From the NCBI GenBank assembly GCA_958295695.1, contig OY282363.1:1738225-1802224 (forward strand): DNA of 64,000 bases. The letters run 5' to 3'. The notes beneath the pieces were generated by a model. It saw nothing but the letters and a program-made list of their open reading frames with translations. It had not been told where the DNA came from and made no database searches. Of this stretch, positions 7,040-26,876 are shown one piece after another; position 1 is the first letter of the stretch, and the number at the start of each line of letters is the position of its first letter. The position numbers and the translations under genes were made by a program. This stretch comes from an uncultured Alphaproteobacteria bacterium. Its GTDB lineage: Bacteria; Pseudomonadota; Alphaproteobacteria; SP197.

Positions 7040-7197
7040 CATCCGCCCGGCTTCCTCCGGCCCGGAGTATCGCGCGACAGGGTTCCCGAGGCTGGCGTAC
7101 TTCGGACGCCACGACAAACCCTGTCCGCGCCGTCCGAGGCCGATTGCCGCGCGACTCGCCAACCTGTATCGTCCGGCCGGTCAGCCGGAGGCGTCCG

Positions 7198-8358
7198 ATG
7201 AATCCGACCGAGATGTACGGCCCGCTCCCGGGCGGGTTGCACGACGATCCGCGCCGATCCTACACGATGGCCTCGCGCTACTACACCGACCCCGCGGTTC
7301 TCGACGCGGAGATGGACAGGATCTTCGCGCGTTCGTGGCTCTTCGTGGGTCACGAAAGCCGGATCGCCGAACCGGGAAGCTACAGGACGGTCACGGTCGC
7401 CGACGAGAGCCTGGCGCTGGTCCGCGGCCGCGACGGCGAGCTCCGCTGCTTCTACAACGTGTGCCAGCATCGCGCGCACCGCATCCTGACCGGCGAGGGC
7501 GCGCTCAAGCTCACCATGGTGTGCCCCTACCACGGCTGGGCCTACAACCTGGACGGCACACTGAGGACGGCGCGCGGGTGCGAGAACGTCGAGAACTTCG
7601 ACAAGAGCGAATTCGGCCTCGAGCAGGTGCGTGTGGAAACCATGCTGGGTCTGATCTTCGTCAACCTCGACCCCGGCGCGCGGCCGTTCCGCGAACAATA
7701 TGCCGGACTGGAGGAGGACATCCTGCGCTGGATGCCGCGCGCCGACGGGCTCGGCTTCGCCCGCGCGCGGGATTTCACGATCGAGGCCAACTGGAAGGTC
7801 GTGATCGACAACTTCCAGGAATGCTACCACTGCGAGCCGGCGCATCCGGCCTTCGTCGATATGGTGGCGATGCCGACCTACCGCAACAGGACGCACCGGT
7901 TCTGGTCGGCCCAGACCTCGGACAAGCCGAGTTCCAGGAACAGTTCCGCCTACGCCTTCGAGACCGGTGACGTGGATTTCGGCTATGCGGGCTACTTCGT
8001 CTGGCCGAACCTGACGATCTGGCTGATGCCGGGCGAGCCGAACCTCATGACCCTGCAGATGCTGCCGGACGGTCCGGAACGTTGCGTCGAACACCTGCAT
8101 TGGCATTCGCTGGGCGGCGAACTGACCGGGCAGGCCGTGTCCGCCATCGACTATGTCGTCGATGTTCTGCAACCCGAGGACATCTCGATTTGCGAAAGCG
8201 TCCACCTGGGCCTGAAGTCGCGCGGCTACGACCGGGGCCGCTTCATCGTCGACCGCGACCGGAGCCACATCAGCGAGCACGGCGTCCACCACTTCCACAT
8301 GCTGGTGATGCAGGCGCTGGAGGGCGGACCGTCCCCGGCGACACAGGCCGCGGAGTAG
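7198..8358 (+). CDS. Rieske [2Fe-2S] aromatic-ring-hydroxylating oxygenase alpha subunit family protein
   Basis: An internal ATG at 7198 in ORF 6730..8358 is preceded by GGAGG. The Rieske motif is CQHRAH..17..CPYHGW. The mononuclear-iron region is NFQECYHCEPAHP. No reductase partner lies in the window. Confidence 0.85.
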   Translation: MNPTEMYGPLPGGLHDDPRRSYTMASRYYTDPAVLDAEMDRIFARSWLFVGHESRIAEPGSYRTVTVADESLALVRGRDGELRCFYNVCQHRAHRILTGEGALKLTMVCPYHGWAYNLDGTLRTARGCENVENFDKSEFGLEQVRVETMLGLIFVNLDPGARPFREQYAGLEEDILRWMPRADGLGFARARDFTIEANWKVVIDNFQECYHCEPAHPAFVDMVAMPTYRNRTHRFWSAQTSDKPSSRNSSAYAFETGDVDFGYAGYFVWPNLTIWLMPGEPNLMTLQMLPDGPERCVEHLHWHSLGGELTGQAVSAIDYVVDVLQPEDISICESVHLGLKSRGYDRGRFIVDRDRSHISEHGVHHFHMLVMQALEGGPSPATQAAE

Positions 8359-11566: not shown

Positions 11567-12796
11567 TCAGGCGGTCGCCGCGGGGCTCTCGGCTTCGAGC
11601 TGGCGGACCTCGAAGCCCGCGGCCGAAAGCTTGCCCATGATGTCGGCGATGTGGTCCCGGCCGAGCGTCTCCAGCACGACGTCGAGGTCGGCCTGCTTGA
11701 CGGGCAGGCTCGAGAAGGCGCGTTGGTGAAAGACGTCGATGATGTTCGCGTCGCAGCCTCCGATGATGCCGGCGATCCTGGCCAGCGTGCCCGGCGCGTC
11801 GGGAATCTCGATGCGGAGCCGAACCATGCGTCCGTCGCGCACCAGCCCGTGCTCGATCACCGCCGAGAGGATGCGGCTGTCGATGTTGCCGCCCGAAAGC
11901 ACCAGGCCGACCTTCTTGCCGGCGAACCGGTCGGAGTGGGCCAGCAGGGCCGCCAGGGAGGCCGCGCCGCCGCCTTCCGAGACGGTCTTCTCGATTTCCA
12001 GATAGGTCTGCACCGCACGTTCGAGCTGGTTCTCGGTCACGAGGACGATGTCGGAGACGAGTTCCCTGACGATCGGAATGGCGGCCTTGCCGGGCGTCTT
12101 CACGGCGATGCCGTCGGCGATGGTGCGCCCGCCCGCCTTCACGTCGAGCCCCTGGAGCGCCTGGCGCATCGACGGGAACATGGCGGCCTCCACGCCGACC
12201 ATTTCGATGTCGGGGCGCATCGCCTTGGCCGCGGTGGCGATGCCGCCGATCAGTCCGCCGCCCCCGATCGGCGCGACGATGACATCGAGGTCGGGCGCGC
12301 ATTCGAGCATCTCCAACCCGACCGTGCCCTGCCCGGCCATGACTTTCTCGTCGTCGTAGGGATGCACGAACGTCAGGTTCTCGTCGGCCGCGACCTTCCG
12401 GGCGGCGACGGCGGCCTCGTCGATCGTCTCGCCCGAAAGCACGACGCGGGCGCCGAAGCGCCGGGTGTTCTTGACCTTCACCGCCGGCGCGCCCTCGGGC
12501 ATCACGATGGTCGAGGGAATGCCGAGCCGCTGGGCGTGGTAGGCCACGGCCTGGGCGTGGTTGCCGGCCGACATGGCGATCACGCCGCGCGCCCGTTCCT
12601 CCTCGGAGAGCGACGACATCTTGACCAGGGAGCCCCGGTCCTTGAACGAGGCCGTGAACTGCTGGTTCTCGAACTTCACGTGGACCTGGGCGCCGCTGAT
12701 CTCCGAGAGCGTGCGCGACAGCGTGCAGGGCGTCCTGACGATCTGGCCCTCGAGAAGCCGGGCGGCGTCCCGGATGTCGGCGAGCGTCACGGCCAT
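11567..12796 (-). CDS. ilvA: threonine ammonia-lyase (threonine dehydratase) with C-terminal ACT-like regulatory domain
   Basis: The 409-aa product carries KFENQQFTASFKDRG (PLP lysine), MSAGNHAQAVAY and PIGGGGLIGG, with an ACT-like tail (RLRIEIPDAPGTLARI). Confidence 0.85.
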   Translation of the reverse strand: MAVTLADIRDAARLLEGQIVRTPCTLSRTLSEISGAQVHVKFENQQFTASFKDRGSLVKMSSLSEEERARGVIAMSAGNHAQAVAYHAQRLGIPSTIVMPEGAPAVKVKNTRRFGARVVLSGETIDEAAVAARKVAADENLTFVHPYDDEKVMAGQGTVGLEMLECAPDLDVIVAPIGGGGLIGGIATAAKAMRPDIEMVGVEAAMFPSMRQALQGLDVKAGGRTIADGIAVKTPGKAAIPIVRELVSDIVLVTENQLERAVQTYLEIEKTVSEGGGAASLAALLAHSDRFAGKKVGLVLSGGNIDSRILSAVIEHGLVRDGRMVRLRIEIPDAPGTLARIAGIIGGCDANIIDVFHQRAFSSLPVKQADLDVVLETLGRDHIADIMGKLSAAGFEVRQLEAESPAATA

Positions 12797-12886
12797 GACC
12801 GGGCTCCTTGCGAATCGGGCGCGGAGCGTGCCGAAAGCGGGACGCCCATGCGTGCCCGGATGCGACCCGCCGGGGTCGCGGAGAAA

Positions 12887-14506
12887 TCAGGACCTCGCGC
12901 CGGCCAGGGCCTCGGGCGTGTCGATATCGACGAGAACGGAATCGTCCGCCATCTCGACTTCGGCGACGAGGTCCTCGTTCTCGCCGATGAGGTGGCGGGC
13001 GCCGGTGTCGCCCGTGACGGCGGCCATGGCCTCGAAGAACCGTCGGTCCCAGAGAACGGGATTGCCGCGCTTCCCGTCGTGGGTCGGGACCACGATGGCG
13101 CGGCCCTCGACGGGATCGTAGGCGGCGACGAGCCGGGCGATGGCGTCCGCCGCGACCCCGGGCATGTCGCCCAGCGCCACGATGACCGCGTCGATATCGG
13201 CCGGCAGGGCGGCCAGCCCCGTTCGCAAGGACGTGCCGAGGCCGGCGGCGAAGTCCTCGTTGCGGACGACCGTCAGGTCGCGGCCCTCCAGGGCCGCCTC
13301 GACGGCTTCGGCCTCGTGACCGGTCACCGCGGTCACCGTCGCGATCCCGGCCTCGATCAGGGCGTCGACGGTGTGGCGCACCATGGGTCTGCCGCCGATC
13401 TCGACGAGGAGCTTGTTGCGCGATCCCATGCGGCGGCTCTGTCCGGCCGCCAGGACGATCGCGGCGATGCGGGGAGGGCGGCGAGCCCGGTCCCCGGCGT
13501 CCTCGGGCGCGGCGCGCGGCCTCGGCCGCAGCGGGATTTCCTTGAGCAGGCCGCCGACCCCCATGGCCGCGATGTCGCGGCCGGTGACGCGCAGGCCCGC
13601 GGCGATACGCCGCAGGACCCAATCGAAACCGTTGAGCTTGGGCGAGCGGGCGCAGCCGGGAAGGCCGACGATCGTGGTCGTCCCCAGATGTCCCAGCAGC
13701 AGCAGGTTGCCGGGATCGACCGGCATCCCGAGGCGATCGACCGAACCGCCGGCCCGTTCGATGGCCGCCGGGATCACGTCGCGCCTGTCCGCGATGGCCG
13801 ATGCGCCGCAGATCAGGACCAGATCGTGGCGGGCGGTCTCCTCGGCGATCCGGTCGGCGAGGATGTCGGTCCTGTGGTCGATGCGGACCTGGCCGTCCAG
13901 CGCCAGCCCGAGGGCCGCCAGACGGTCGGCCACGACCCCGGCGGTCTTGTCCAGGACACGGTCCTTGACGGCGGCCGTCCGGGTCATGATGAGCGCCGCG
14001 CGGCGGAGCTTGAAGGGCGCGACGCCGATGACGCGGCCGGAGACGCGCGCCGCGACGAGGCAGCGGTCGAGGACGTCGCCCTGGACCGCGAAGGGGATGA
14101 TCTTGACGGTGGCGACCATCCGGCCGGCCGACACCGCCTCGAACGGGGGCAGCGTCGCCACGGTCACGGCTTCGTCCGTCCCGTTGACGGCGTCGATCGC
14201 GGCGGCGTCGATCGCCGCGATACCGGATTCGGTCGCAAGGAGGTTGGCGCGGCCCGTGAAGGGCCGCTGGACCCGGATGGACGGCCCCGCCAGCGCGTCG
14301 GCCAGCATCCGCGCGGCCTCGTCCTCGTGGATATCGCCCTCTTCCAGGCGCGCGACGGTGACCGACTCCACCCCGGCCCGCCGGAGGCCCTCGACATGCG
14401 CGGCGTCCAGACGCAGGCCCTTCTTCAGAGTTTCTCCGCCGTAGCGCGCGCCGTGGACCAGGATCGCCCCAGCGGCCTCGCCCACGGGAATGCCGCCGAA
14501 CTTCAC
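12887..14506 (-). CDS. molybdopterin-binding domain / MocA-like molybdenum-cofactor cytidylyltransferase fusion protein
   Basis: The GTG start at 14506 overlaps the upstream stop (GTGA). The middle region has a MoCF-biosynthesis pattern (LVLICGASAIADRRDVIP...GMPVDPGNLLLLG). The C-terminal NTP-transferase pattern is IVLAAGQSRRMG..NKLL...ALGDMP. Confidence 0.75.
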   Translation of the reverse strand: MKFGGIPVGEAAGAILVHGARYGGETLKKGLRLDAAHVEGLRRAGVESVTVARLEEGDIHEDEAARMLADALAGPSIRVQRPFTGRANLLATESGIAAIDAAAIDAVNGTDEAVTVATLPPFEAVSAGRMVATVKIIPFAVQGDVLDRCLVAARVSGRVIGVAPFKLRRAALIMTRTAAVKDRVLDKTAGVVADRLAALGLALDGQVRIDHRTDILADRIAEETARHDLVLICGASAIADRRDVIPAAIERAGGSVDRLGMPVDPGNLLLLGHLGTTTIVGLPGCARSPKLNGFDWVLRRIAAGLRVTGRDIAAMGVGGLLKEIPLRPRPRAAPEDAGDRARRPPRIAAIVLAAGQSRRMGSRNKLLVEIGGRPMVRHTVDALIEAGIATVTAVTGHEAEAVEAALEGRDLTVVRNEDFAAGLGTSLRTGLAALPADIDAVIVALGDMPGVAADAIARLVAAYDPVEGRAIVVPTHDGKRGNPVLWDRRFFEAMAAVTGDTGARHLIGENEDLVAEVEMADDSVLVDIDTPEALAGARS

Positions 14507-15186
14507 GCGAGCTTTCCCCGCTGCGCGGCGACGACTTCGGCCATGATGGAAAGGGCGATCTCGGCCGCCGTCTTCGCGCCGATGTCGAGGCCGACCGGAC
14601 CCTTGACGCGCGCGACCGCGCCGTCCGGGAATCCGGCCTCCTTCAACCGTTCGATACGCCGAGCATGGGTCCGCTTGCTGCCCAGCGCTCCGATGTGGAA
14701 GACGGGCGCCGAGAGCGCGAAGCGAAGCGCGGGATCGTCGATCTTGGGGTCGTGGGTCAGCGTCACCACGGCGGTCCGGCGATCGGGCCGGAGCTCGGCG
14801 AGCGCGTCGTCGGGCCAGGCGTCGAGCAGGACCGCGCCGGGAAAGCGCTCCGTATCCGCGTAGGCGCGGCGGGGGTCGATCACGGTCACCGCGTATCCGA
14901 CGGCGCGGGCGAGGGCGGCGAGCGGTTCGGCGATATGAACCGCGCCGACGACGATCAGGCGCGGGGGCGGGTTGAAGACGTGGAGGAAGAGAGGCCGGCC
15001 TCCGATCTCGACGCTTGCCGAACGGTCGGACGCGAAGGCTTCGGCCACGGCTTCGGCGATCGCCGCGCCGGGCGCTTCTCCGGGCGCGATCAGCGTTTCG
15101 TCGCCGGTATCGAGCCAAGTGGCCAGCACGACCGGACGTTTGTCGCGCCGCGCGTCGTTGAGCGCCATGAGGGTCCGGGGGTTCAT
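14503..15186 (-). CDS. XdhC/CoxI family accessory protein (Rossmann-like C-terminal type)
   Basis: An internal ATG at 15186 (MNPRTLMAL). Pattern: PRLIVVGAVHIAEPLAALA...VTVIDPR...HIGALGSKRTHARR...GPVGLDIGA. Confidence 0.8.
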   Translation of the reverse strand: MNPRTLMALNDARRDKRPVVLATWLDTGDETLIAPGEAPGAAIAEAVAEAFASDRSASVEIGGRPLFLHVFNPPPRLIVVGAVHIAEPLAALARAVGYAVTVIDPRRAYADTERFPGAVLLDAWPDDALAELRPDRRTAVVTLTHDPKIDDPALRFALSAPVFHIGALGSKRTHARRIERLKEAGFPDGAVARVKGPVGLDIGAKTAAEIALSIMAEVVAAQRGKLA

Positions 15187-15512
15187 CCGACGCGGGACAC
15201 GAAAACCCTGACGGTTCCGCCGCAGGTCAACCCGACCTCCCAGGCCCGCTCGTTGCTGACCGAAAACTCGAGGGTCCGCGCCCTGCCGTCGCCGATGGCG
15301 GCCCGCGCTTCGCCGATGACCGCGCCCTCGATGCATCCGCCGGAGACGGAGCCCCGGAACGCGCCGTCCTCGCGCACGACGAGCTGGCTGCCCACCGGAC
15401 GCGGGCTGGACCCCCAAGTGTGCGTCACCGTCGCCAGGGCGACACGGCGGCCCTCGCCGATCCAGGCCTCCGCGGTTTCGAGCGCGTCGTCGTTCAGGCC
15501 GCTTTCAGCCAC
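15183..15512 (-). CDS. XdhC/CoxI family protein, N-terminal-domain type
   Basis: A GTG start at 15512 (VAESGLNDDALETAEAW). Pattern: VALATVTHTWGSSPRPVGSQLVV..DG...GSVSGGCIEGAV. The stop overlaps the next start (ATGA). The start codon choice is uncertain. Confidence 0.7.
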   Translation of the reverse strand: MAESGLNDDALETAEAWIGEGRRVALATVTHTWGSSPRPVGSQLVVREDGAFRGSVSGGCIEGAVIGEARAAIGDGRARTLEFSVSNERAWEVGLTCGGTVRVFVSRVG

Positions 15513-16699
15513 GCTTCCATCTCCCTGTCCGCGACGCGGTCCGGCCCGGCCAGGGCGTCGGCCAGCTCTTCCAGACTCTTGAGATTGTGGCACGTCCGGA
15601 AGGCGTCCACATGGGGCAACATCGTGCGGATACCCCAGGAACGGGGCTCGAAACCGCGCCAGCGCAGCAGCGGGTTGAGCCAGACGAGCTTGCGGCAGGA
15701 GCGATGCAACAGCGCCATCTCCCGGCCCAGACCGCCGTCGGCGTCGCGGTCGAGACCGTCGGTTACGAGGACCGCGACAGCGCCCTGGCCCAGGACCCTC
15801 CGGCTCCAGAACCGGTTGAACCGATGGAGGCACGCCCCGATGCGCGTGCCGCCGGACCAGTCGTCGACACGCCGGGCGACGAGCGCCAGCGCCTTGTCGA
15901 TATCGCGGTGCCTGAGGTCGCGCGTGATGTTGGTGAGGCGCGTCCCGAAGGCGAAAGTGTGGACGCGATGGCGGTCGTTCGTGAGCGCATGGGCGAAGTG
16001 CACCAGCATTCTGCTGTATCCCGTCATCGAGCCCGAGACGTCGCAGAGGAGAACCAGCACGGGCGGCCGGCTGTCCTGGCGCGCGCGACGGAGCGGGATG
16101 AGGCCGGCGGGGTGGCGTGTCGCGTCGCGCAGGGTCCGGCGCAGGTCGATGCGGTCGCCGGCCGGCGCGGACGCGAGGCGGCGCATCGGGACGCGGTCGA
16201 GATCGAGGCGCATGCGCGCGACGATCCGTTTCGCCCGCTCGATCTCGTCCGCCGACATGTCGTCGAAGTCCATGGCGCGCAGGGCGTCCCGTTCGGAGAA
16301 GGTCATGGTCATGTCGGACTCGACGTCGTCGCGTTCGGGCGGCCTGTCGTTGTCGCCCAGCCCCATCGCGTCCGCGGCGCGGCGGGCGACCGGGGCGCGT
16401 TCGTCCTCGCGCTCCGCGGCCGGCGGCGCCAGACCGAGCAGGCGTTCCAGAAGCTTCGGGTCGCGCCAGAACAGGTGAAAGATCTGGTCGAACAGCGCGC
16501 GCTGCTCGCGCCGGTGAACGAAGAGCGCATGGAGCGTCCAATAGAAATCGTCGCGCCGGTCGAGCCCCGTGAGGCGAACCGCGTCGAGGGCGTCGATCAC
16601 GCCGCCGGGCCCGACGGGCAGGCCCGCCGCCCTCAATGTCCGGGCGAAATGCAGGATGTTGTCGGCCAGACGGCCGCCCGCGTCCGGTTCCGCGCTCAT
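15494..16699 (-). CDS. coxE: VWA domain-containing CoxE-like protein
   Basis: The 401-aa product has the MIDAS pattern VLVLLCDVSGSM, followed by TDGLDRD and LVWLNPL, as in CoxE. Confidence 0.8.
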   Translation of the reverse strand: MSAEPDAGGRLADNILHFARTLRAAGLPVGPGGVIDALDAVRLTGLDRRDDFYWTLHALFVHRREQRALFDQIFHLFWRDPKLLERLLGLAPPAAEREDERAPVARRAADAMGLGDNDRPPERDDVESDMTMTFSERDALRAMDFDDMSADEIERAKRIVARMRLDLDRVPMRRLASAPAGDRIDLRRTLRDATRHPAGLIPLRRARQDSRPPVLVLLCDVSGSMTGYSRMLVHFAHALTNDRHRVHTFAFGTRLTNITRDLRHRDIDKALALVARRVDDWSGGTRIGACLHRFNRFWSRRVLGQGAVAVLVTDGLDRDADGGLGREMALLHRSCRKLVWLNPLLRWRGFEPRSWGIRTMLPHVDAFRTCHNLKSLEELADALAGPDRVADREMEAWLKAA

Positions 16700-17616
16700 T
16701 GCGCGGCGGCCCCGACCGTCATGTCGCGGCGAAGCCGGTCGAGCAGCAGGGCCGCCTCGGTCCCCTTCACGCGCTCGATGTCGTCCTGGTACTTCAGCAG
16801 CACGCCCAGCGTATCGTCGACGATCGCGGGATCGAGCGTCATCGCGTCGAGGTGGACCAGGGCCCGCGCCCAGTCGAGGGTTTCCGCGACGCCCGGCAGC
16901 TTGAAGAGGTCCTTCGCGCGCAGGGCCTGGACGAAGGCCACGACTTCCGATGAAAGCCGCTCGGCGCAGTCCGGCGCCTTGCGCCGCAAGATCTCGAGTT
17001 CCCGTTCGGCGGTGGGATAGTCGACCCAGTGGTAGAGGCAGCGGCGCTTGAGCGCGTCGTGGATTTCACGTGTCCGGTTCGACGTGATGACGACGACCGG
17101 CGGCTCGGCCGCCTCGATGGTGCCGAGTTCGGGAATCGTCACCTGAAAGTCGGACAGCACCTCGAGAAGGTAGGCCTCGAACGGCTCGTCGGTCCGGTCC
17201 AGTTCGTCGATGAGCAGGACCGGGGGGCCGGACTCGTGGGGCTGGAGCGCCTCGAGGATCGGCCGCTTGAGGAGAAAGTCGTTGCTGTAGATGTCGTCCG
17301 CGACGCCCTGGCGGTCGACCGCTCCGCCGGCCTCGGCGAGCCTTATCTCGATCATCTGGCGGGGGTAGTTCCACTCGTAGACGGCGTGCGCGATGTCGAG
17401 GCCTTCGTAGCATTGGAGCCGGATCAGATCGCGCCCGAGCGCCGTGGCCAGGACCTTGGCGGTCTCGGTCTTGCCGACGCCGGCCTCGCCTTCCAGGAAC
17501 AGGGGCCGGGTCATGGTCAGCGCCAGATAGATCGTGCTCGCCAGGCTGCGGTCCGCGATGTAGTCGGCGGATTCGAGCAGGGCCGCGGTGCGGTCGATGG
17601 AACGGGGGAGGGGCAT
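16696..17616 (-). CDS. coxD: MoxR-like AAA+ ATPase (CoxD-like)
   Basis: The 306-aa product has Walker A at LEGEAGVGKTETAK and Walker B at VLLIDELDR. It overlaps coxE by 4 nt. Confidence 0.85.
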   Translation of the reverse strand: MPLPRSIDRTAALLESADYIADRSLASTIYLALTMTRPLFLEGEAGVGKTETAKVLATALGRDLIRLQCYEGLDIAHAVYEWNYPRQMIEIRLAEAGGAVDRQGVADDIYSNDFLLKRPILEALQPHESGPPVLLIDELDRTDEPFEAYLLEVLSDFQVTIPELGTIEAAEPPVVVITSNRTREIHDALKRRCLYHWVDYPTAERELEILRRKAPDCAERLSSEVVAFVQALRAKDLFKLPGVAETLDWARALVHLDAMTLDPAIVDDTLGVLLKYQDDIERVKGTEAALLLDRLRRDMTVGAAAQ

Positions 17617-17649
17617 GAGCCGCCAAGGCCGGAAGCGCCGGGAAGACGG

Positions 17650-18000
17650 CTATTTTTGCACCCAGTCGCCGCTTGCGTCCATGTAGTAGCCGCCGGCGGG
17701 CAGGCTCTGGATGATTTTCTCGCCGGCCACGATCTCGACCGCCCGAAGCGACGCGCCGTTCTTGTCGGCCGGCTCTTCGTATCTGGCGCGGCGCCGCCCG
17801 TTGACGTCGGCCATCGGATCGAGCGCCCAGCCGGGCGCCGAGGGGTCGCGCGGGGCGAGGTAGCCGTCGGGGCGTTCGCCGAGATAACCCGAGGCGCGCG
17901 CCTCGCCGAGGCTCTGCGCCCGGGCCGCGCCGGCGGACGCCAGCATCGCGCCGGCCGCGATGGCGAGGAAGGAACGGCGCGGGAGATCAGAACGACTCAT
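17650..18000 (-). CDS. ydbL: YdbL-like periplasmic protein (DUF1318)
   Basis: The 116-aa product has a signal peptide with an RR motif. It matches the remembered E. coli YdbL pattern (LGEAR.SG.LGE..DGYL ... VN..R...Y ... G.Y....G.WV.K). Confidence 0.75.
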   Translation of the reverse strand: MSRSDLPRRSFLAIAAGAMLASAGAARAQSLGEARASGYLGERPDGYLAPRDPSAPGWALDPMADVNGRRRARYEEPADKNGASLRAVEIVAGEKIIQSLPAGGYYMDASGDWVQK

Positions 18001-18190
18001 CGTCGTCCTCCAGGAGATCTTCGATGTCCTTCTCCAGCTTCACGCGAACCTCCCGCTCGATCTTGACGTTGAGATCGATCACGATCGGGTCCTTGGGCGC
18101 CTCGACGCGAACGGTCGGCTGGAAGGCCGCCATGAACAGCGCGACCAACGCCGCTTGATACGTGGGAAGGGTTCTTCGAGAGGACCGCAT
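17987..18190 (-). CDS. ynbE: YnbE-like small protein (lipobox cysteine absent)
   Basis: In the 67-aa product, VRVEAPKDPIVIDLNVKIEREVRVKLEKDIEDLLE matches the YnbE core (IEV.APKEPI.IN.NVKIEHE). The position of the lipidated Cys reads Phe (AAFQPT). Confidence 0.7.
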   Translation of the reverse strand: MRSSRRTLPTYQAALVALFMAAFQPTVRVEAPKDPIVIDLNVKIEREVRVKLEKDIEDLLEDDDESF

Positions 18191-18221
18191 GACATCGTCC
18201 GTTCGCGGATGGCGACCCTGG

Positions 18222-18229
18222 AACGCGAT
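18222..18229. repeat. target-site duplication, left copy (AACGCGAT)
   Basis: Identical 8-mers lie at 18222-18229 and 19931-19938, each separated from the 23-bp inverted repeat by one base. Confidence 0.8.
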
Positions 18230-18230
18230 C

Positions 18231-18253
18231 GGAATTTCCTAGTTTAGGGTCTT
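18231..18253. repeat. left terminal inverted repeat GGAATTTCCTAGTTTAGGGTCTT
   Basis: It is the exact reverse complement of 19907-19929. Confidence 0.9.
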
Positions 18254-18448
18254 TATATCTGGGCGGTTGACTCTGCGCCGCCAAGGATTCCAAGCTCCCT
18301 CCATCGCCAAACCAACCATGGGACGCCCCTGCGTCGGGCTGCCCGTGAATACAAGACCGTGCGAGCGGGAATCAGCGGGGACCCTGAAACCCATGGTTGT
18401 TTGGCGACCGGCCCGGCACTCCCGCCGGCCGGAACGCTGGAGCGAGTC

Positions 18449-19075
18449 ATGAAGCGGATGATGATTGCGGCCCTCGCGGCACTGCTGAGCGGCGCGGCCT
18501 CGGCTGAGGACTACGAGGAGATGCGTCCCAAGGACAGCAAGCTGCGCCTCGGCGTCCTCGGGGAAGAAGCGGAGGGCTCGTGGTTTCTGGAGGAAAAGAA
18601 ATCGTTTGGGACGTTCCGCTGCGACTACGGTTATTGGGGCTTCGACGACGATCAGCGGAGCAGGGTCAAGGCCCAATACTGCTGGTCGGACAACGTCTCC
18701 TCTTGGGACGACAGTGGCGGCTACACTGGCGAGGAGGCCGACACGGACGAGTTCCTGGAATGGAACGATGAGACACGCCTTGCCGACAGCAGGGACAACG
18801 CCGAGGAAGGCCCTACCATCGAAACCGTCGTCGGAGATGTTGTCGTACACGCCTTCGACGTGGAGAAGGACACGTCTTGGAAGACCTACAGGGAGTGCAT
18901 GGGGTTTCACATGGTCTGGGGCAAGGGGTACGGCGTATCGCGCAAACTCTACGCCAAGTCGCTGACCTTCTACGCCTGCGACAACGCCACCAGCACCATG
19001 TCGGAGGCCAAGCTCCTCCGCATTCTGTCCAGCTTCAGCATCGAAGGTGAGTTCGACGCGCTGGTAGAGAACTAG
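18449..19075 (+). CDS. hypothetical secreted acidic protein (passenger gene of the IS-like element)
   Basis: An internal ATG at 18449 in ORF 18359..19075 is preceded by GGAGCGAG. The signal peptide is MKRMMIAALAALLSGAASA. The mature part is D/E/W-rich with 4 Cys. I recognise no family. Confidence 0.6.
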   Translation: MKRMMIAALAALLSGAASAEDYEEMRPKDSKLRLGVLGEEAEGSWFLEEKKSFGTFRCDYGYWGFDDDQRSRVKAQYCWSDNVSSWDDSGGYTGEEADTDEFLEWNDETRLADSRDNAEEGPTIETVVGDVVVHAFDVEKDTSWKTYRECMGFHMVWGKGYGVSRKLYAKSLTFYACDNATSTMSEAKLLRILSSFSIEGEFDALVEN

Positions 19076-19078
19076 CCG

Positions 19079-19833
19079 TCAGTCTTCCAGCGCGAGCGGA
19101 ATGGTCTTGTTCAGCTTGGGGAAGGCGCGGTTGAGGTCGCCCTTGAAGCGGTTCCAGTTGGGGGCCGCCCGCATGAGCGCCATGACAGCCGCCGAGTGCT
19201 GGTTGAGCTTGACGTGGCCGGGGTCCGGCGTGAACCATTGATGGTGCGTCGTGCGCCGCCGTCCTGTCGGCAGTGTCGGATTGATCCGCTTCAACTCATC
19301 CAGGACGCCGGGCGCCAAGCGTTCGTAGACGAGATCGTTGGTGTAGTGGCCGATGACGGCGGGGCGCTTGTGGCCGTCCGGGCCGGGCCGTCGCCCTTCG
19401 TGCCCTTGCGAGGCTTGCCACCGATAAAGGTCTCGTCCATCTCGACGATGCCGGCCAGAAGCAACCGGTGCTCGGCTTGGGTCATGGCCCGCTTGATCTG
19501 CATGGCGATCCGCCAGGCCGTGTTCTTGTTCACGTCGAGATCGCGGGAAAGCTGGAGCGCCGACAGGCCCTTCTTGGCGTTCAGCATAAGCATGATCGCC
19601 AGAAACCACTTCTGGAGCGGCAGGTGCGTGCGGTGGAAGATCGTCCCGACCGTCACGCTGAACGAGGTCTTGCAGTCGTAGCAGCGATGGCGGCGGCGTG
19701 CGTCGTTGCTGGGAGCGGTGTTGGCCGACCCGCAATAGGGGCACTTCGGCTCGCCCTTCCACCGTGCCGCCTCAAGATGAGCGACGCAGGATTCTTGGTC
19801 GGGAAACCACTCGAAAATCTGTATGATGTTCAT
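19079..19833 (-). pseudogene. IS1595-type transposase N-terminal region (Zn-ribbon + HTH) continued, after a -1 frame change, by a P63C-like phage-type C-terminus; DDE catalytic domain absent
   Basis: From the ATG at 19833 the sequence MNIIQIFEWFPDQESCVAHLEAARWKGEPKCPYCGS...RHRCYDCKTSFSVTVGTIFHRTHLPLQKWFLAI...GLSALQLSRDLDVNKNTAWRIAMQIKRAM...VEMDETFIGGK matches the IS1595/ISXO2 N-terminus. Near 19388-19400 (GGCCCGGCCCGG) the sensible reading moves to the frame of ORF 19079..19762. That frame reads HKRPAVIGHYTNDLVYERLAPGVLDELKRINP...HHQWFTPDPGHVKLNQH...LMRAAPNWNRFKGDLNRAFP. Confidence 0.65.
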
Positions 19834-19906
19834 CGGCAATCCGTCCTTTCGTGGCGCGTTCGATCCGGTGACAGGATGAACATGACCCCCGATTGGGCGG
19901 ATTATC

Positions 19907-19929
19907 AAGACCCTAAACTAGGAAATTCC
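19907..19929. repeat. right terminal inverted repeat AAGACCCTAAACTAGGAAATTCC
   Basis: It is the exact reverse complement of 18231-18253. Confidence 0.9.
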
Positions 19930-19930
19930 A

Positions 19931-19938
19931 AACGCGAT
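19931..19938. repeat. target-site duplication, right copy (AACGCGAT)
   Basis: Identical to 18222-18229. Confidence 0.8.
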
Positions 19939-19942
19939 TGTG

Positions 19943-22900
19943 TCAGAAAACGGACAGGCGTTCTCGGATTTCTTCCGGGAGGCGCCACGCGCCGAGGCCG
20001 TGGAGCAGGATCTCGTCGAGGTCGCCGGCGAGGTTGACGTTGAGTTCGATCGGATAGCCGTCATGAAAGCCCGGATTGGCCCCGGCGATATGGACGCCGA
20101 GTTCCGCCGCGCCGCCCGCCGCGCGGTCGATGTCGATCGCCAGGGCGCTGAACCGGAAGTCCGACAGGACATCGAGCACTTGTTCCATGTTCTCGTCCAT
20201 CGGGCCGAAGGGCGCTGGCCGTCCGTCCGGAATGTAGCGCAGCAGCCCGGCGGAATCGGCGTCGAGCCGGCCGTGCGCGATGACGATGTCGCCGCCCGTC
20301 ATTCGGACGGGAATGGAGCCCGTCAGTCTCGCGTCGGTCTCGATCCATGGAACGTCGAGGTCGTCCAGCAGCGTCGCGAGGTCGACGCCCTGGATGTCGA
20401 GCAGCGCCTCGTTGCCGTCCGGCGCGAGGCGGAGGACCGAGGGGCGGGCCGCGATGCGCCCGCCGGCGAGCCCGGCGGACGCGGCGTCGACGCGCAGGCT
20501 GCCGTCGCCGGGGAGCGCGAGGGTGACCGCGAGGTCGGTCAGGGGAAGGCCGGCATCGAGCCTTTCGGCCGCGAGCGTCTGTTTCGGCGGGGTCGAGAGC
20601 GGATCGACGTTGGAGAACGTCACCTCGCCTTCGAGGCCCTCGATGGCGACGCCGCCGTTCCGGCCTGACAGGCCGAGAAGGGAGAGCGTGAGGTCCGATG
20701 ACGCGACGCCGTCGTCGATCGCGATCTTCCCATGGAGCTCGACGGCGCCGGAGACCTCCTCCAGAAGGCCGCCATAGAGCGGAGACACCTCGTTCGGCTG
20801 GCTCCCGCCGGGCTCGAACCGGATCGGCGGGACGCGGATCAGCGCGCGAAACAGGTCGTCCGACGGCCGGTAGCTCGACTCCACGTTGGCGAGGAAGCGC
20901 CGGTCGCCCATGTGGAGAGTGCCGTTGAAGCGGACATCGTCGCCCAACGGCCAGACCGGCATGACCGCAACGTCGGCGGCCAGCGGCGCGAAACGGGCGG
21001 GTTCGCGGAGGTCTTCGATGACCCGGATGTCGGCGGTGGCCTGCGGCCAATCCGACAGGCCGTTGTTGTACGTGAAGAGGAGCCGGATATCGGCCAGACG
21101 GAGGTCGGGTCCCTCGACGAGGATGTCGCCGCCCTCGGTTTCGACCGTCCCCTGGAGGTGATGGCGGCCCAGGCTGCCGAACCGGACGCCCATCGACGGC
21201 AGAGTTCCGTCGACAGCCGCGATCGTCCCGCCGTCCTCGATCACGTCGAAACGCACTCCGGCCGGGCCGGTCAGCAGGCGCGCGTCCCAACTCCAGTCCT
21301 CGCCGAAGCGTTCCAGGACCAGCAACGGCAGCAGCTCGGCCTCGAGCTTCACGGAGGTCGCGCGATGCGAGCGGAGACGCGGATGCCGGAGGGTCCGGAT
21401 GTCGATCCAGGCGGTGTCGGCTAGGCGGACGTTGAGGCCGTTGTCCACCAGTTCGAAGTCGAGCGGCAGCTCGGCCAGGACCCCCGTGGCGGCCGTATCG
21501 AGGACGGTCACCGTGTCGGCTTGAAAGAGCGCGACGGGGTCGGCCTCCGCGCGCGTCGCCCCGTCCGCATGGCCGATTCTCAGCGGGAGGTCGAGGACGA
21601 TGGCGGTAGCGTCAGCGCCGGCGGCCGAGAGCGTGTCGAGCCTGGCCCGCAGGCTCGCCGCGCCGTCGAACGCGGCGGGCGCGCCCGCGATACCGCCGGC
21701 GACGCGGATGGCGCCCGTCGCGCTCCGGGGCGCGAGCGCGCCCGAGGCGGCGAACTCGAGCGCGGAAACATCGAAGGCGGCCAGCGCGCCATCGGGAGTC
21801 AGCTCCGCGTCGCCGCGGATGGAAAGCCGGCCGTCGAGGTCCCCGCCGCTCCTCAAGGAAGCGTCCAGGGCCGCCGCGATGGCGATCGACTCGCCCGAGA
21901 CGGTCGCGTCGGCGACGATCCCCTCCGGTGGAAGCGTCAGGTCGAACGGACGGTCGAGAGCCGCCGCGACGATCCCGCCCGCCGCCTCGGGCGGAGGCAG
22001 GCGCGCGCCCAGGATCGCCCCGCCCGGCCGCGCGGTCAGGCGCAGACGCCGCCCGTCCGCGGCGATGTCGAATGACAGCGCCGAGGCCTCGACGGAAAAC
22101 CGGTCGGACAGGGACATGGCCCCGGTCTCCAGGTCGATCCGGCCCGTCAGGGCGATGGCGTGGAGGTCGAGCGGCCGGTCGGGTGGAACGAAGGCCTCGA
22201 ACGAGACGTCCAGGCTCGCGGGGCCATGCAGATCGAGCGAATCGACCATGGGCGGGGTCATGGAGTCGCGAACGGCGAACGCGCCCGTCGCGGCGACGCG
22301 GAGCCGATCCCCGGCCATGCCGGAGACGATCGAGACGGCGGCCGAGAGCGGCGCCTCCTCGACGCCGAAACCGATGTCGGCGACGAACGAGCGGCCGTCC
22401 CACGACCCTTCGGCGGTCAGGCCGCCGAGGTCCGGGCCGCCCGCGGCGACCTCGGCCTCGGCGAGCGAAACGACGACCCTGTCGCGGCCCGAGACGGGGT
22501 CGGGTTCGAGGGACAGGACGCCGGACACGTGGCCGAACGCGCCGTCCACGCGCCATCGGCCGGAGCCCGAGACCGATGCGCCGGTCGATTCCAGGGCGGC
22601 GTCGAGCCGTGCGCGGATCGTGTCGAGCGGATGGACAAGGGCGATCTCGGCGTCCTCGATGACGAGGGCCGCGAAGGGGAGCGGTTCGCGGAGCCCGTTT
22701 CCGTCATCGCGCCGGTTCAGCAATCCGGCCAGAGGAGACGCCGGGACGCCGTCCCCGTCGAAACGGATCGCGAGATCGACGCCGGCGAGGCGCACCGATT
22801 CGACCCGCCCGTCGAGAAGCCGCCACGGACGAAAGGACAGTTCGACGCGGCCGACCGCGCCGGCCCCGGGAACGGAGACGCCGGTCAGCACCATGCGGCC

Positions 22901-23086
22901 GGTTTCGACCTCGGTCACGGTGTAGGCGGCGCCGGCCAGGGGCGTCCCGGAGATCCCGAGGCGCACCAGCCGGTCCGCGATCTCGTGGCGCGCGGCGAAC
23001 CAGACCGCCGCGACCGCGACCGCCGCGGCGACCGCCAGGATCGAAAGACGGCGGATCGGCCCCGGGAGAGGGCGGAGGAAGAACAC
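19943..23086 (-). CDS. ydbH: YdbH-like AsmA-family large envelope protein
   Basis: The 1047-aa product has an N-terminal membrane anchor (LSILAVAAAVAVAAVWF) and a long repetitive beta-rich body. The YdbH-type C-terminus reads LRYIPDG...FRFSALAIDIDR...GVHIAGANP...PIELNVNLAGDLDEIL. It is syntenic with ynbE-ydbL as in E. coli. Confidence 0.75.
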   Translation of the reverse strand: MFFLRPLPGPIRRLSILAVAAAVAVAAVWFAARHEIADRLVRLGISGTPLAGAAYTVTEVETGRMVLTGVSVPGAGAVGRVELSFRPWRLLDGRVESVRLAGVDLAIRFDGDGVPASPLAGLLNRRDDGNGLREPLPFAALVIEDAEIALVHPLDTIRARLDAALESTGASVSGSGRWRVDGAFGHVSGVLSLEPDPVSGRDRVVVSLAEAEVAAGGPDLGGLTAEGSWDGRSFVADIGFGVEEAPLSAAVSIVSGMAGDRLRVAATGAFAVRDSMTPPMVDSLDLHGPASLDVSFEAFVPPDRPLDLHAIALTGRIDLETGAMSLSDRFSVEASALSFDIAADGRRLRLTARPGGAILGARLPPPEAAGGIVAAALDRPFDLTLPPEGIVADATVSGESIAIAAALDASLRSGGDLDGRLSIRGDAELTPDGALAAFDVSALEFAASGALAPRSATGAIRVAGGIAGAPAAFDGAASLRARLDTLSAAGADATAIVLDLPLRIGHADGATRAEADPVALFQADTVTVLDTAATGVLAELPLDFELVDNGLNVRLADTAWIDIRTLRHPRLRSHRATSVKLEAELLPLLVLERFGEDWSWDARLLTGPAGVRFDVIEDGGTIAAVDGTLPSMGVRFGSLGRHHLQGTVETEGGDILVEGPDLRLADIRLLFTYNNGLSDWPQATADIRVIEDLREPARFAPLAADVAVMPVWPLGDDVRFNGTLHMGDRRFLANVESSYRPSDDLFRALIRVPPIRFEPGGSQPNEVSPLYGGLLEEVSGAVELHGKIAIDDGVASSDLTLSLLGLSGRNGGVAIEGLEGEVTFSNVDPLSTPPKQTLAAERLDAGLPLTDLAVTLALPGDGSLRVDAASAGLAGGRIAARPSVLRLAPDGNEALLDIQGVDLATLLDDLDVPWIETDARLTGSIPVRMTGGDIVIAHGRLDADSAGLLRYIPDGRPAPFGPMDENMEQVLDVLSDFRFSALAIDIDRAAGGAAELGVHIAGANPGFHDGYPIELNVNLAGDLDEILLHGLGAWRLPEEIRERLSVF

Positions 23087-23190
23087 CCCGTTATTCTAGC
23101 CCGGATCGCGTCCGGTTCCGTCAACCGGAATTCGCGCCGCGAGGTGGACCGTGACGCATTGGCGGGTGGGAACGATCGCGGTCCGCCCTC

Positions 23191-23988
23191 TCAGCCCAGC
23201 GCCTTGGCGACGGCGCGCTTGGCCATCACGGTGACGAGATGGGCGCGGTAGTCGGCGGCGGCGTGGATGTCGCTGTTGAGGCCGTCTTCGGGGATCGCGA
23301 TGCCGGCCACGGCGTCGGGGGAGAAGTCGCGCGTCAGGGCCTCTTCCATTTCGCGCACGCGGAACACGCAAGGGCCGGCGCCCGTGACCGCGACCCTCAT
23401 GCCCGCTCCGGTGTCGGCCACGAACACGCCGACGATCGCGTAACGCGAGGCCGGGTTCGGGAACTTCATGTAGGCGGCGCGGCGGGGCTTCGGGAAGGCC
23501 ACGGCCGTCACGAGCTCGCCCTCCTCCAGCGCGGTCTCGAAGAGATCGGGGAAGAAGCCGTCGGCCGGGACCGCGCGCCTGTCGGTGGTGACTGTGGCCC
23601 CGAGTCCGACCAGGGCGGCCGGATAGTCGGCCGCCGGATCGGCGTTCGCGATCGACCCGCCGATCGTTCCGCGGTTGCGCACCTGGAAATCGCCGATCAT
23701 GCCCGCGAGCTCGGCGAGCGCCGGGATGGCCGCCCCGCACCCGGGCGAGCGCGCGACATCGGCGTGACGCGCGCCGGCGCCGACGACGACCGCGCCGTCC
23801 TCCACACGGACGCCCTTCAGCGCCTCGATGTGGGCGATGTCGATGAGGTCGGTGGGCGCGGCGAGGCGCAGCTTCATCGTGGGCAGGAGCGTGTGGCCGC
23901 CCGAGAGGTAGCGCGGATCCTCGCACTCGCCGAACAGGCGGGCGGCGGCGTCGAGCGTGTCGGGACGGTGGTACCGGAACGCGTACAT
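23191..23988 (-). CDS. coxM: molybdenum hydroxylase (CO dehydrogenase/xanthine dehydrogenase family) FAD-binding medium subunit
   Basis: The 265-aa product carries [41 protein letters not shown] and a CoxM-type C-terminus ([12 protein letters not shown]). Confidence 0.85.
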
Positions 23989-23991
23989 CGT

Positions 23992-24471
<480 letters not shown>

Positions 24472-24540
24472 GGCAAGCTCCCCGATGGCCCCGAGGCCCG
24501 CAGTCTCGAAGCGCGCCGGCCCGCGGTCAAGCCCGCGCGG

Positions 24541-25155
24541 TCACTGCGCGACCGCGCCGGCGACCAGCAGGACGAGGAGCGCCAGGCCGATGAAGCCGAA
24601 CCACAGGTTCTCGAAACTGGCCTCGGCCGGCGCGCCGTAGACGGGCCGCGGAGGCGGACGCCCGTTCGCCGCCGGGGCCTCGGCCGTCGCGGCGGGCTCC
24701 TCCCCGGTCCGCGACGGTTGCGCCACCAGGTCGTCGAGGGCGCCGAAGAAGCGGTCCGCGATCTTGCGCGCGCTGCCTTCGACCAGACGGGCGCCGACCT
24801 GAGCCAGCTTGCCGCCGACCTGGCCTTCGGCTTCGTAGCGCAGGACGGTCGCCGCGCCGTCGGCCTCCAGCGTGACGCGCGCGCCGCCCTTGGCGAAACC
24901 CGCGACGCCGCCCTGGCCTTCGCCCGAGATGGTGTAGGCGTTGGGCGGATCGAGGTCCGACAGGGCGACCCGGCCCCTGAAGGTCGCCGAGACGGGACCG
25001 ATGCGCGCTGTCACCCTGGCGGCGAAGGCGGTGGCGGACTCCTTCTCGATCTCCCGGCAGCCGGGAATCGCCCGCTTGAGCACCTCGGGATCGTTGAGGG
25101 CGCGCCACACCGCCTCGCGAGGAGCCTCGATTCTGTGTTCGCCGGTCAGATTCAT
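24541..25155 (-). CDS. coxG: SRPBCC-fold CoxG-like protein with C-terminal membrane anchor
   Basis: An internal ATG at 25155 is preceded by GGGAGA. Pattern: [33 protein letters not shown]... [11 protein letters not shown]...[11 protein letters not shown]. The tail is hydrophobic ([18 protein letters not shown]). Confidence 0.8.
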
Positions 25156-25178
25156 CGGCGTCTCCCTGGGCGGACGGC

Positions 25179-26876
25179 CTAGCCGCCGCGGATGAGGTGG
25201 ACGATCAGCACGATCGCGAGCACCAGCACGATGGCGAGCGACGCGGCGCTCATCGCGGGGTCGCGCGCAAACAGACCCCGTGGGCCGTTCCAGCGCAAGG
25301 CCAGACCGATCGCGCCTTGGACCAGGTCGTGCGCGGCGGCCCCGAGCGGCGCGCCGGCGTCCGCCAGGAGGCGCCGGCCCCGTCGCGCCAGGCGCGGCAG
25401 CAGCCAGCGGTAGGTCCACTCCGCGTCGATATTCACGCCGGGCAGCTCGGGAGGATAGAGCCGGTGGAGCTTCAGCAGCGTGAAGGCGAGCGCGGAGAAG
25501 AAGAGGAGCTGGCACTGGGTCACCACATGCGGCCACGTGTAGGGCGCGTAGTCCACCGCATGGGGCAGCAGACCGTAGAGGAGATCCGGATAGACGCCGT
25601 TGAAGACGCAGACGAAGGCGGCGACCGCCATGGCGATCAGCATGGCCGGGGGCGCTTCCTTCGGCCGCAGGCCGGAATCGTGGGCGAAGAAGGCGAAGAA
25701 CGGGATCTTGATCCCGGCGTGGTGGAAAACGCCCGCCGAGGCGAACAGCAGCGCCAGCCAGATCCAGTCGTGACCCTCCTCGAGGGCGGCCGCCATGATC
25801 ATGGACTTCGAGACGAAGCCGGAGAACAGCGGGAAGGCCGAGATCGAGGCCGCGCCGACGATACAGAAGCCGGTCGTCATCGGCATGGTCTTGTAGAGGC
25901 CGCCGAGTTCCGAGCCGCCCATCCTGCCGGTGCGGAACAGCACCGCGCCCATGGTCATGAACAGGAGGCCCTTGAAGATCACGTCGTTGAAGGCGTGGCC
26001 GACGGCGCCGTTGATCGCCATCTCCGTGCCGATGCCGATGCCGACCACCATGAAGCCCAGCTGGTTGATCATGCTGTAGGCCAGAACCCGGCGGAGGTCG
26101 TTCTCGATCACGGCGTAGAAGATCGGGAACAGGGCCATCGCCGCGCCGATCGCGATCAGCTCCTCGGTTCCGGGGAACAGGCGGGCGAGCGCGTAGATCG
26201 CGACCTTGGTCGTGAACGCGCTCATCAGCACGGCGCCGGTCGCCGTCGTCTCGGGATAGGCCTCCGTGATCCAGCCGTGAAGCAGCGGGAAGCCGCACTT
26301 GACGCCCAGCGCGAGGAACAGGAGCCAGGCGGCCATGCCGTCGAGCTCGAGCGGAGCGAGGGCGAGGTCGCCGCCCTGCGCCGAAAGCACGACGACGCCG
26401 GCCAGCATCAGCAGGCCCGACGCGACCTGGATGACGAGATAGCGGATCGCCGTGCGTTCCGCCGAACGGGTCCGGCGCGCCAGGATGAGGAAGGCCGAGG
26501 TGAGCGCGAGGCCCTCCCAGAACAGGAAAAGCGCGACGAGATCCCCGGCGAACACCGCGCCGAGGGCGCATCCGGCGTAGGCGAGCGCCGCGGTGTGCTG
26601 CATGCGGTCGCGGGTGTGCAGGCTGTAGAGGCCCGCGATCAGCGCCGCCAGATGGAACAGCCAGCCGAACAGGGACGAAAGACGGTCGACGCTGACGAGG
26701 GTCACGTCGTGCGCGAGGAGCCCGGCCGTCAGGACAACGCCGGGATCGAGGAACCAGAGGTTGACCACGCCCACGACCGGCGTCGCGACCATGACCGCGC
26801 CGCGGACGGAACCGCGGGTGACGGCGGCGAGCGCGGCGCCGGCGAAGAAGACGAGGAAGGGCGCGACGCTAGTCAT
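25179..26876 (-). CDS. mrpD: Mrp/Mnh antiporter subunit D-like (NuoL/M/N family) protein, copy 3
   Basis: The 565-aa polytopic membrane protein has proton-pump family motifs (FLFWEGLALTSAFLI; GFPLLHGWITEAYPE; SMINQLGFMVVGIG). Confidence 0.85.
   Translation of the reverse strand: MTSVAPFLVFFAGAALAAVTRGSVRGAVMVATPVVGVVNLWFLDPGVVLTAGLLAHDVTLVSVDRLSSLFGWLFHLAALIAGLYSLHTRDRMQHTAALAYAGCALGAVFAGDLVALFLFWEGLALTSAFLILARRTRSAERTAIRYLVIQVASGLLMLAGVVVLSAQGGDLALAPLELDGMAAWLLFLALGVKCGFPLLHGWITEAYPETTATGAVLMSAFTTKVAIYALARLFPGTEELIAIGAAMALFPIFYAVIENDLRRVLAYSMINQLGFMVVGIGIGTEMAINGAVGHAFNDVIFKGLLFMTMGAVLFRTGRMGGSELGGLYKTMPMTTGFCIVGAASISAFPLFSGFVSKSMIMAAALEEGHDWIWLALLFASAGVFHHAGIKIPFFAFFAHDSGLRPKEAPPAMLIAMAVAAFVCVFNGVYPDLLYGLLPHAVDYAPYTWPHVVTQCQLLFFSALAFTLLKLHRLYPPELPGVNIDAEWTYRWLLPRLARRGRRLLADAGAPLGAAAHDLVQGAIGLALRWNGPRGLFARDPAMSAASLAIVLVLAIVLIVHLIRGG

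Follow-up and report, generated by a model that had tools for sequence, protein, structure and literature searches.

An internally deleted, cargo-bearing IS1595-family element inserted between ydbH and ynbE in an uncultured alphaproteobacterium

The IS1595 family of insertion sequences (ISs) reportedly includes passenger-carrying members, the 'transporter IS', in an account said to be that of Siguier, Gagnevin and Chandler from 2009. One such transporter IS of this family is ISNha5, whose passenger is a transcription regulator (PMC11891212). A second described system relevant here is the ydbH-ynbE-ydbL operon of Escherichia coli, a single operon, as a sequence-only reading of the present locus had also held, whose products form an AsmA-like intermembrane lipid bridge; YnbE is an outer-membrane lipoprotein on which the function of YdbH depends and whose anchor is a conserved lipidated Cys, and how much YdbL there is relative to YdbH/YnbE matters (PMC11126948). 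The two systems meet in a 64,000-nt stretch of an uncultured Alphaproteobacteria bacterium (contig OY282363.1 of assembly GCA_958295695.1, positions 1,738,225 to 1,802,224; hereafter, the window), in which a 1.7-kb element separates ydbH from ynbE-ydbL. Taken as a whole, the locus is very probably explained by the insertion of a member of a transposase-P63C clade of the IS1595 family into the ydbH-ynbE spacer, in a copy that has now lost about 1 kb and is non-autonomous.

Where does this element begin and end? The 23-nt sequence GGAATTTCCTAGTTTAGGGTCTT at positions 18231-18253 has its exact reverse complement at 19907-19929, and no further match with three or fewer mismatches was found in the window (0 in 100 shuffles). 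The sequence AACGCGAT lies at both flanks, one base outside each 23-nt repeat. This 8-mer is not in itself rare, occurring six times in the window against 3.9 expected, and it is therefore its position that counts; that it is a true target-site duplication (TSD) is proved by the empty site described below. When the first 20 nt of the inverted repeat (IR) were searched against one genome per species, 7 loci were found, and a metagenome scan gave 20 loci (L numbers below denote loci outside the window). Approximately 40 termini in other genomes all start with C-GGAATTTCC. The IR is therefore 24 nt long, 23 perfectly paired nucleotides plus a mismatched tip base, and the element extends from 18230 to 19930, the apparently external base belonging to it. 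Thus, the 23 perfect base pairs of the sequence-only reading stand, but not its outer limit, whereas the IRs themselves, the 8-bp TSD, the position between ydbH and ynbE and the distances to the neighbouring stop and start codons were all correctly described there. The tip base at 19930, in the transposase-proximal IR, is T (A on the plus strand), where the approximately 40 other termini have C; because a similar variant tip is accompanied by a perfect TSD at L036, the T need not be disabling. The composition of the element is foreign, with a GC content of 61.7% against approximately 71% in the flanks.

The state of the locus before the insertion is preserved in other assemblies, which were found through a YdbH search that returned, besides the identical protein on a 3,415,685-bp contig, a syntenic relative with 70% identity (L008) and two members of the YdbH 90% cluster (P0006 and P0007; L009 and L010). 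In both L009 and L010, which are conspecific with the window, the site is exactly empty: the 8-mer occurs there once, ydbH and ynbE are separated by a spacer of 43 nt, and either flank shares 99.3% identity with the window. Window positions 26000 to 19931 align without gaps to L009 5087 to 11156, and window positions 18229 to 12000 to L009 11149 to 17378; the two alignments overlap by exactly 8 nt, ATCGCGTT. In L008, the site is also empty, with a spacer of 41 nt. Because two conspecific assemblies with 99.3% identity carry the exact empty site, the insertion is judged to be recent and strain-specific, younger than the strain divergence of approximately 0.7%. The tests proposed with the sequence-only reading, namely a search for the same IRs and TSDs at other copies and for an empty site in relatives, thus both gave positive answers, since the same IR also bounds other copies with 8-bp TSDs.

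The open reading frame (ORF) next to the transposase-proximal IR retains an IS1595 zinc ribbon (PF12760, Zn_ribbon_IS1595; also NF050000; 42.2 bits against a cut-off of 25.4, residues 36-81 of the 205-aa ORF), and the transposase stub matches NF033547 at 83.9 bits (cut-off 75) over positions 1-85 of 215. Of the DDE domain (PF12762, DDE_Tnp_IS1595), only positions 2-22 of 153 are left, scoring 15.4 bits, below the cut-off of 27. Over residues 1-151, the stub shares 79-84% amino acid identity with the intact transposases of L001 and L005, and the nucleotide sequence of the element is 78-79% identical to its relatives over approximately 570 nt including the IR. These matches bear out the earlier assignment to the IS1595 type. 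The P63C-domain fragment, in turn, is 62-71% identical to the intact P63C proteins of L001 and L005 over residues ~190-300. Relative to L001, L005 and L019, approximately 1.0 kb is absent from the window copy. Because the match of the window to the transposase gene runs as far as ...GGCGACGGCCCGG and then resumes in P63C at the homologous (T)GGCCyGGCCCGGACGG, the alignment places the breakpoint at a GGCCCGG microhomology. The deletion took out the DDE catalytic domain in its entirety, along with the first two thirds of P63C, and with the DDE domain deleted the copy cannot move by itself. We also considered a programmed -1 frameshift joining the stub to the P63C fragment, and rejected it: there is no X_XXY_YYZ heptamer and no homopolymer of six or more.

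As a functional element, therefore, the IS of the sequence-only reading did not survive the analysis, as the catalytic domain is deleted and the reading frame continues into the final third of the P63C gene. The zinc ribbon, the terminal IRs, the 8-bp TSD and the homology are all those of the IS1595 family; what the copy lacks as a functional member is the DDE domain. By descent it belongs to the family, and the most fitting description is an internally deleted derivative, non-autonomous and cargo-bearing, which has the intact ends and TSD without a functional transposase that characterise a non-autonomous element. In this respect it resembles a miniature inverted-repeat transposable element (MITE), with intact ends, a TSD and the need for a helper in trans. 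However, its 1.7 kb exceed the size of a MITE by far, it keeps the N-terminal stub of the transposase and an apparently intact cargo gene, and one copy is known.

Intact relatives define the architecture from which this copy departs. They are 1.9-3.9 kb long with 8-bp duplications, and encode a transposase of approximately 295-309 aa followed at once, and usually with overlap, by a P63C-domain gene of approximately 300 aa. This order is found in L001 (2,913 bp), L005, L019 (1,938 bp, a complete copy as long as its contig), L036 (3,870 bp) and L037 (2,463 bp), and a P63C remnant adjoins the IR in L026. The DDE domains of L001, L005 and L019 are intact (PF12762, 106-122 bits; NF033547 209 bits for L019), as are the P63C domains of the relatives (103-112 bits). 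TSDs of 8 bp are perfect at L023, L034 and L036 and match at 7 of 8 positions at L001 and L037. Thus, the intact relatives share with the IS1595 family a zinc-ribbon and DDE (ISXO2-like) transposase, IRs of approximately 24 nt, an 8-bp duplication and growth by passengers, whereas the window copy lacks the DDE domain and, in this clade, the conserved partner is a P63C-domain protein. No named IS was matched, since even the nearest annotated IS1595 transposase on a plasmid has no more than 41% identity; in the protein search of annotated plasmid records, identities reached at most 41% for the transposase and 44% for P63C, with no close relative, and when the whole element was compared with 72,556 plasmids, neither megablast nor blastn found a match. 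The ends of the ISNha5 subgroup are presumably CGGnnTT, to which CGGAATT in the present element would conform.

Elsewhere, the family is active. In metagenome Ga0209568, at least 12 contigs break off precisely 107 nt into an identical transposase-proximal IS end, and their flanks are AT-rich; this signature points to an active IS present in very many copies in a low-GC organism and, therefore, to horizontal spread across very different hosts. In addition, MITEs with the same 24-nt IRs occur at L023 (3488-3654) and L034 (767-933), both of 167 bp and with perfect 8-bp TSDs (TAATTTTC and AAAAAATT), and at L024 (1170-1364; 195 bp). The activity of the family rests on the contig ends and on the 167-bp MITEs. 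At five solo-IR loci (L002, L003, L004, L006 and L007), no transposase or P63C gene was found within the stretch examined; the inner sequence of L002 is shared with the cargo end of L001. Several further observations concern the relatives themselves. Within the L001 element there is an additional, degenerate IR-like sequence (3086-3105), directly followed by an ORF for a 124-aa protein with a signal peptide (3106-3480); the arrangement suggests that a nested or one-ended event brought in the cargo module. Next to the L005 element, the far IR of which was looked for and not found, lies a second transposase gene of IS1595 type, only distantly related (~30%; 3471-4407), and a fragmented second IS1595 gene lies near the L037 element (7140-8076). 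Finally, the best 120 of 999 homologues of the transposase N-terminus (P0164-P0282) are all short, 137-265 aa against ~295 aa, many with differing out-of-frame tails; either the clade is mostly decayed or these are frameshifts from long-read assembly.

Table 1. Coordinates of the element, its parts and the flanking genes in the window, with related features at other loci
Feature	Position	Strand	Remarks
Whole element	18230-19930, 1,701 bp	-	61.7% GC vs 70.7-71.7% in flanks; transposase remnant on minus strand
Left TSD copy, AACGCGAT	18222-18229	.	single copy at L009/L010 empty site
Right TSD copy, AACGCGAT	19931-19938	.	sequence match and empty-site overlap
Left IR (IRL), 24 nt, CGGAATTTCCTAGTTTAGGGTCTT	18230-18253	+	cargo-proximal end; terminal C common to ~40 termini in other genomes
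Right IR (IRR), 24 nt	19907-19930	-	transposase-proximal end; 23/24 complementary to IRL; tip T, not C
Truncated transposase ORF, 180 aa	19291-19833	-	IS1595 zinc ribbon and helix-turn-helix (HTH); ~22 DDE positions; 30-aa out-of-frame tail (P0163)
P63C-domain gene remnant	19079-19393	-	C-terminal ~104 codons only; Pfam P63C positions 35-93 of 93, 55 bits
Internal deletion junction	19378-19389	-	two overlapping GGCCCGG motifs; transposase codon ~155 joined to P63C codon ~190, one frame apart
Cargo ORF, 208 aa	18449-19075	+	N-terminal signal-peptide-like segment; convergent with transposase remnant
Leader upstream of cargo gene, ~130 nt	18296-18425	+	~80% identical in L005 and L017
Leader copies elsewhere	L005 3060-3183; L017 1027-1146	-	conserved, structured
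GC-rich hairpin between convergent ORFs	19057-19094	.	-22.5 kcal/mol, z = -2.3 on minus strand; no U-tract after; not called an intrinsic terminator
ydbH-like gene, 1,047 aa, intact	19943-23086	-	PF11739, 194.8 bits; stop (19943-19945) 4 nt from duplication
ynbE-like gene, 67 aa	17987-18190	-	PF13617; now 1.75 kb downstream of ydbH vs 43 nt; ATG 18190, 39 nt from element end
ydbL-like gene (DUF1318), 116 aa	17650-18000	-	PF07027; overlaps ynbE 3' end
Ga0209568 contigs ending 107 nt inside IS end	L016, L018, L020-L022, L028, L029, L031-L033, L035

About half of the element (18254-19078) is occupied by a cargo gene and its leader, which the sequence-only reading had passed over. The cargo protein matched no Pfam or NCBIfam family. 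Its homologues fall into only four clusters (57-67% identity), which lie in chromosomal or island contexts without the IRs or the leader, and the homology begins only past the signal peptide; an AlphaFold2 model built on five sequences was unusable (pLDDT 41.6). The leader, on the other hand, precedes three unrelated small secreted or membrane ORFs in the window, L005 and L017. Its plus strand folds with z = -3.6 (0 of 200 shuffles), against z = -1.1 for the minus strand; covariation among three sequences only gave two compensatory pairs, which were equalled in 101 of 500 shuffles. Two mutually exclusive stems can be drawn, CGCCAAAC..CCAYGRG/CYCRTGG..GTTTGGCG or GUCGGGCUG/CGGCCCGGC. Among described RNAs, the closest is sRNA-Xcc1, which is said, in the title of a 2011 paper by Chen et al., to be transferred by transposons and plasmids. 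The leader shares with it a length of approximately 90 nt, a location immediately ahead of a small ORF in a mobile element, an AAUACAA loop and the GUCGGGCUG/CGGCCCGGC outer stem. The scores against sRNA-Xcc1 (RF02221), 31.5 bits in the window (18333-18425) and 30.4 bits in L005, are nevertheless below the gathering score of 53 and do not place the leader in the family, and its thermodynamically best fold uses the other, mutually exclusive long stem. Moreover, the genes downstream of the leader are not symE, whereas the Xanthomonas sRNA-Xcc1 lies upstream of symE in integron cassettes according to a preprint (bioRxiv 10.1101/2025.06.18.660453). We keep the relation as a lead only.

What might the insertion mean for the interrupted operon? 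The Pfam matches agree with the gene identities given by the sequence-only reading, and the locus has the same three families in the same order as E. coli, tightly packed in relatives (a spacer of 41-43 nt and overlapping ynbE and ydbL). All three are contiguous in L008, L009 and L010; the window retains this order, although ydbH is parted from ynbE-ydbL by 1.7 kb of foreign DNA. The surroundings are unlike those in E. coli, in that ydbH-ynbE-ydbL has a coxG/coxS/coxM-like gene set on one side and the accessory genes moxR/coxE/xdhC on the other (window 12000-26000), an order conserved in L008, L009 and L010. It appears from this arrangement that ydbH is transcriptionally uncoupled from ynbE-ydbL, or linked to it only by transcripts that read through 1.7 kb, past an antisense gene and a hairpin, and the earlier suggestion that ynbE-ydbL would need read-through or an outward promoter seems reasonable. 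A consensus scan of 17600-20200 found zero sigma-70 promoters and zero intrinsic terminators, and is uninformative in an organism with 70% GC; for this reason, polarity on ynbE-ydbL is something that we infer from the arrangement of the genes.

The window locus differs from that of E. coli in a second respect, namely the loss of the lipidated Cys of YnbE. Codon 23 (18122-18124, minus strand) is TTC (Phe) in the window and TGC (Cys) in L008, L009 and L010, a single G>T change at 18123, such that the window protein reads FMAAF|QPTVRV where the three relatives read ...AAC|QPTVRV. This lipobox Cys is kept in 145 of 150 family representatives and the window protein, with Phe, lacks the mark of a lipoprotein; it should therefore not be lipidated. 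Together with the split operon, the C23F change probably impairs the YdbH-YnbE bridge in the window strain. The ynbE-ydbL region is also a local hot spot of divergence. Compared with L009, it contains 17 differences in 541 nt of coding sequence against 0.56% elsewhere (Poisson 2e-8), or 18 over 17691-18218, with a ratio of nonsynonymous to synonymous changes of 12:5 against 25:46 elsewhere (Fisher p = 0.013). Faster decay of ynbE-ydbL after the insertion was considered and rejected: polarised with L008, nine changes are derived in the window and eight in L009. The hot spot (17650-18229) is therefore a property of the locus and not of the insertion, and its cause could be relaxed or diversifying selection, or recombination.

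We weighed this explanation of the locus against several others. An intact, autonomous IS1595-type IS would also have perfect IRs, a perfect TSD and a zinc-ribbon ORF adjoining one IR, and its NF033547 score would lead an annotation pipeline to label a transposase. Nevertheless, the truncated domain matches, the out-of-frame tail past residue ~155, the kilobase missing relative to five intact relatives and the lack of a slippery heptamer or homopolymer to restore the frame, with nothing catalytic downstream, make an intact IS very improbable. Even less credible is an ancient, fixed feature of the locus or an assembly chimera in place of transposition; the presence of only one copy in the window would agree with it, but the exact empty sites in two nearly identical assemblies and in a more distant relative, the occurrence of the same IRs with 8-bp TSDs in unrelated genomes and the position of the element inside a 3.4-Mb contig (3,415,685 bp) speak against it. 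More serious is the question of the order of events. The deletion might have come first, the 1.7-kb form then moving, as a large MITE or 'transporter' derivative, through an intact relative that has since been lost or is too divergent. The family does mobilise non-autonomous derivatives, as the two 167-bp MITEs with perfect TSDs attest, and the still perfect IRs and TSD in the window leave little time since insertion. On the other hand, the junction-bearing tail occurs in no other protein among the best 120 of 999 homologues, and its cluster is confined to one contig. Among the same best 120 of 999, the source contig contributes only the stub product itself, the next-best match being 83% identical and in another assembly, and no second transposase was found in the 64-kb window, in which there is a single match. 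Deletion before insertion is thus a real possibility, though not the one on which we would settle: because, among those homologues, the junction is unique and the source contig has no intact near-identical transposase, and because the window has no second one, the insertion of an intact copy of ~2.7 kb with its cargo, followed by deletion in situ, is slightly favoured. For want of an intact twin among those homologues on the source contig, the non-autonomous copy is probably also stranded.

A separate question is whether the insertion might be phenotypically silent, with ynbE-ydbL still expressed by read-through or from a promoter in or at the edge of the element, and with YdbH-YnbE-YdbL still at work. 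Several facts temper our interpretation of an impaired, stranded locus. That a helper transposase is missing was judged from a protein-database listing (the best 120 of 999) and not from a full-genome scan, and more distant IS1595 transposases could exist in the source genome. As no terminator-like site was found in the element, or anywhere in 17600-20200, transcripts might read through from ydbH or from the transposase promoter, and the transposase remnant points the same way as ydbH and ynbE. The ribosome-binding and start region of ynbE is untouched, the system has not decayed grossly, as ydbH and ydbL are full length, and C23F rests on one base call in a single assembly. Against silence, transcripts would have to traverse 1.7 kb that includes the antisense cargo gene with its own leader and the -22.5 kcal/mol hairpin; a sigma-70-like outward promoter was not found in the consensus scan; YnbE lacks the almost universally kept Cys that anchors it in the outer membrane, and in E. 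coli the balance of YdbL with YdbH/YnbE is important (PMC11126948). On balance, we regard a silent insertion as rather unlikely.

Under the explanation that we prefer, insertion followed by deletion, a member of the two-gene clade, with 24-nt IRs (CGGAATTTCC...), a zinc-ribbon/HTH/DDE transposase gene, an adjoining P63C gene and optional cargo next to the far IR, would have entered the 43-nt ydbH-ynbE spacer by ordinary DDE cut-and-paste or copy-in transposition, duplicating the 8 bp AACGCGAT. Recombination at the GGCCCGG microhomology would then have removed ~1 kb, comprising the DDE domain and the first two thirds of P63C. What is left is a 180-aa DNA-binding stub, a dead P63C fragment and, behind its conserved, structured leader, an apparently intact convergent gene for a 208-aa secreted protein. 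Within this account, the sequences themselves show that the element was inserted, where it ends, that the insertion is recent, that the deletion took place and how the family is built. Such a copy would be movable only with a transposase supplied in trans by an intact relative, and none was detectable in the genome among the best 120 of 999 homologues.

The event is ordinary in kind; it is the comparison of before and after that is unusually clean. One could go further and propose that the tnp-P63C elements are an undescribed IS1595 subgroup in which P63C, predicted to bind DNA, is an obligatory co-transposed partner, that the conserved, structured, sRNA-Xcc1-like leader next to one IR serves the cargo-bearing forms as a transferable unit for the expression or regulation of exchangeable cargo, namely small secreted or membrane proteins, and that the window is both a natural dissection, with the catalytic module deleted and the leader and cargo kept, and a natural knock-down of the YdbH-YnbE lipid bridge, by the split operon and the lost lipid anchor of YnbE, in a free-living alphaproteobacterium-like organism. 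We consider this wider proposal unlikely to hold in full and offer it tentatively. Whatever its fate, a tnp-P63C clade with a conserved leader before swappable cargo, and without a close relative among the annotated plasmid records searched, comes into view here. The locus also carries a warning, since annotation pipelines would still call the stub a transposase. With its filled site, exact empty site and dated deletion, it offers a clean natural example of an IS1595-family element becoming a stranded, cargo-only relic, and the natural strain pair, 99.3% identical and differing in the insertion and in the loss of the YnbE Cys, could be used to probe whether the YdbH-YnbE bridge is dispensable outside E. 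coli.

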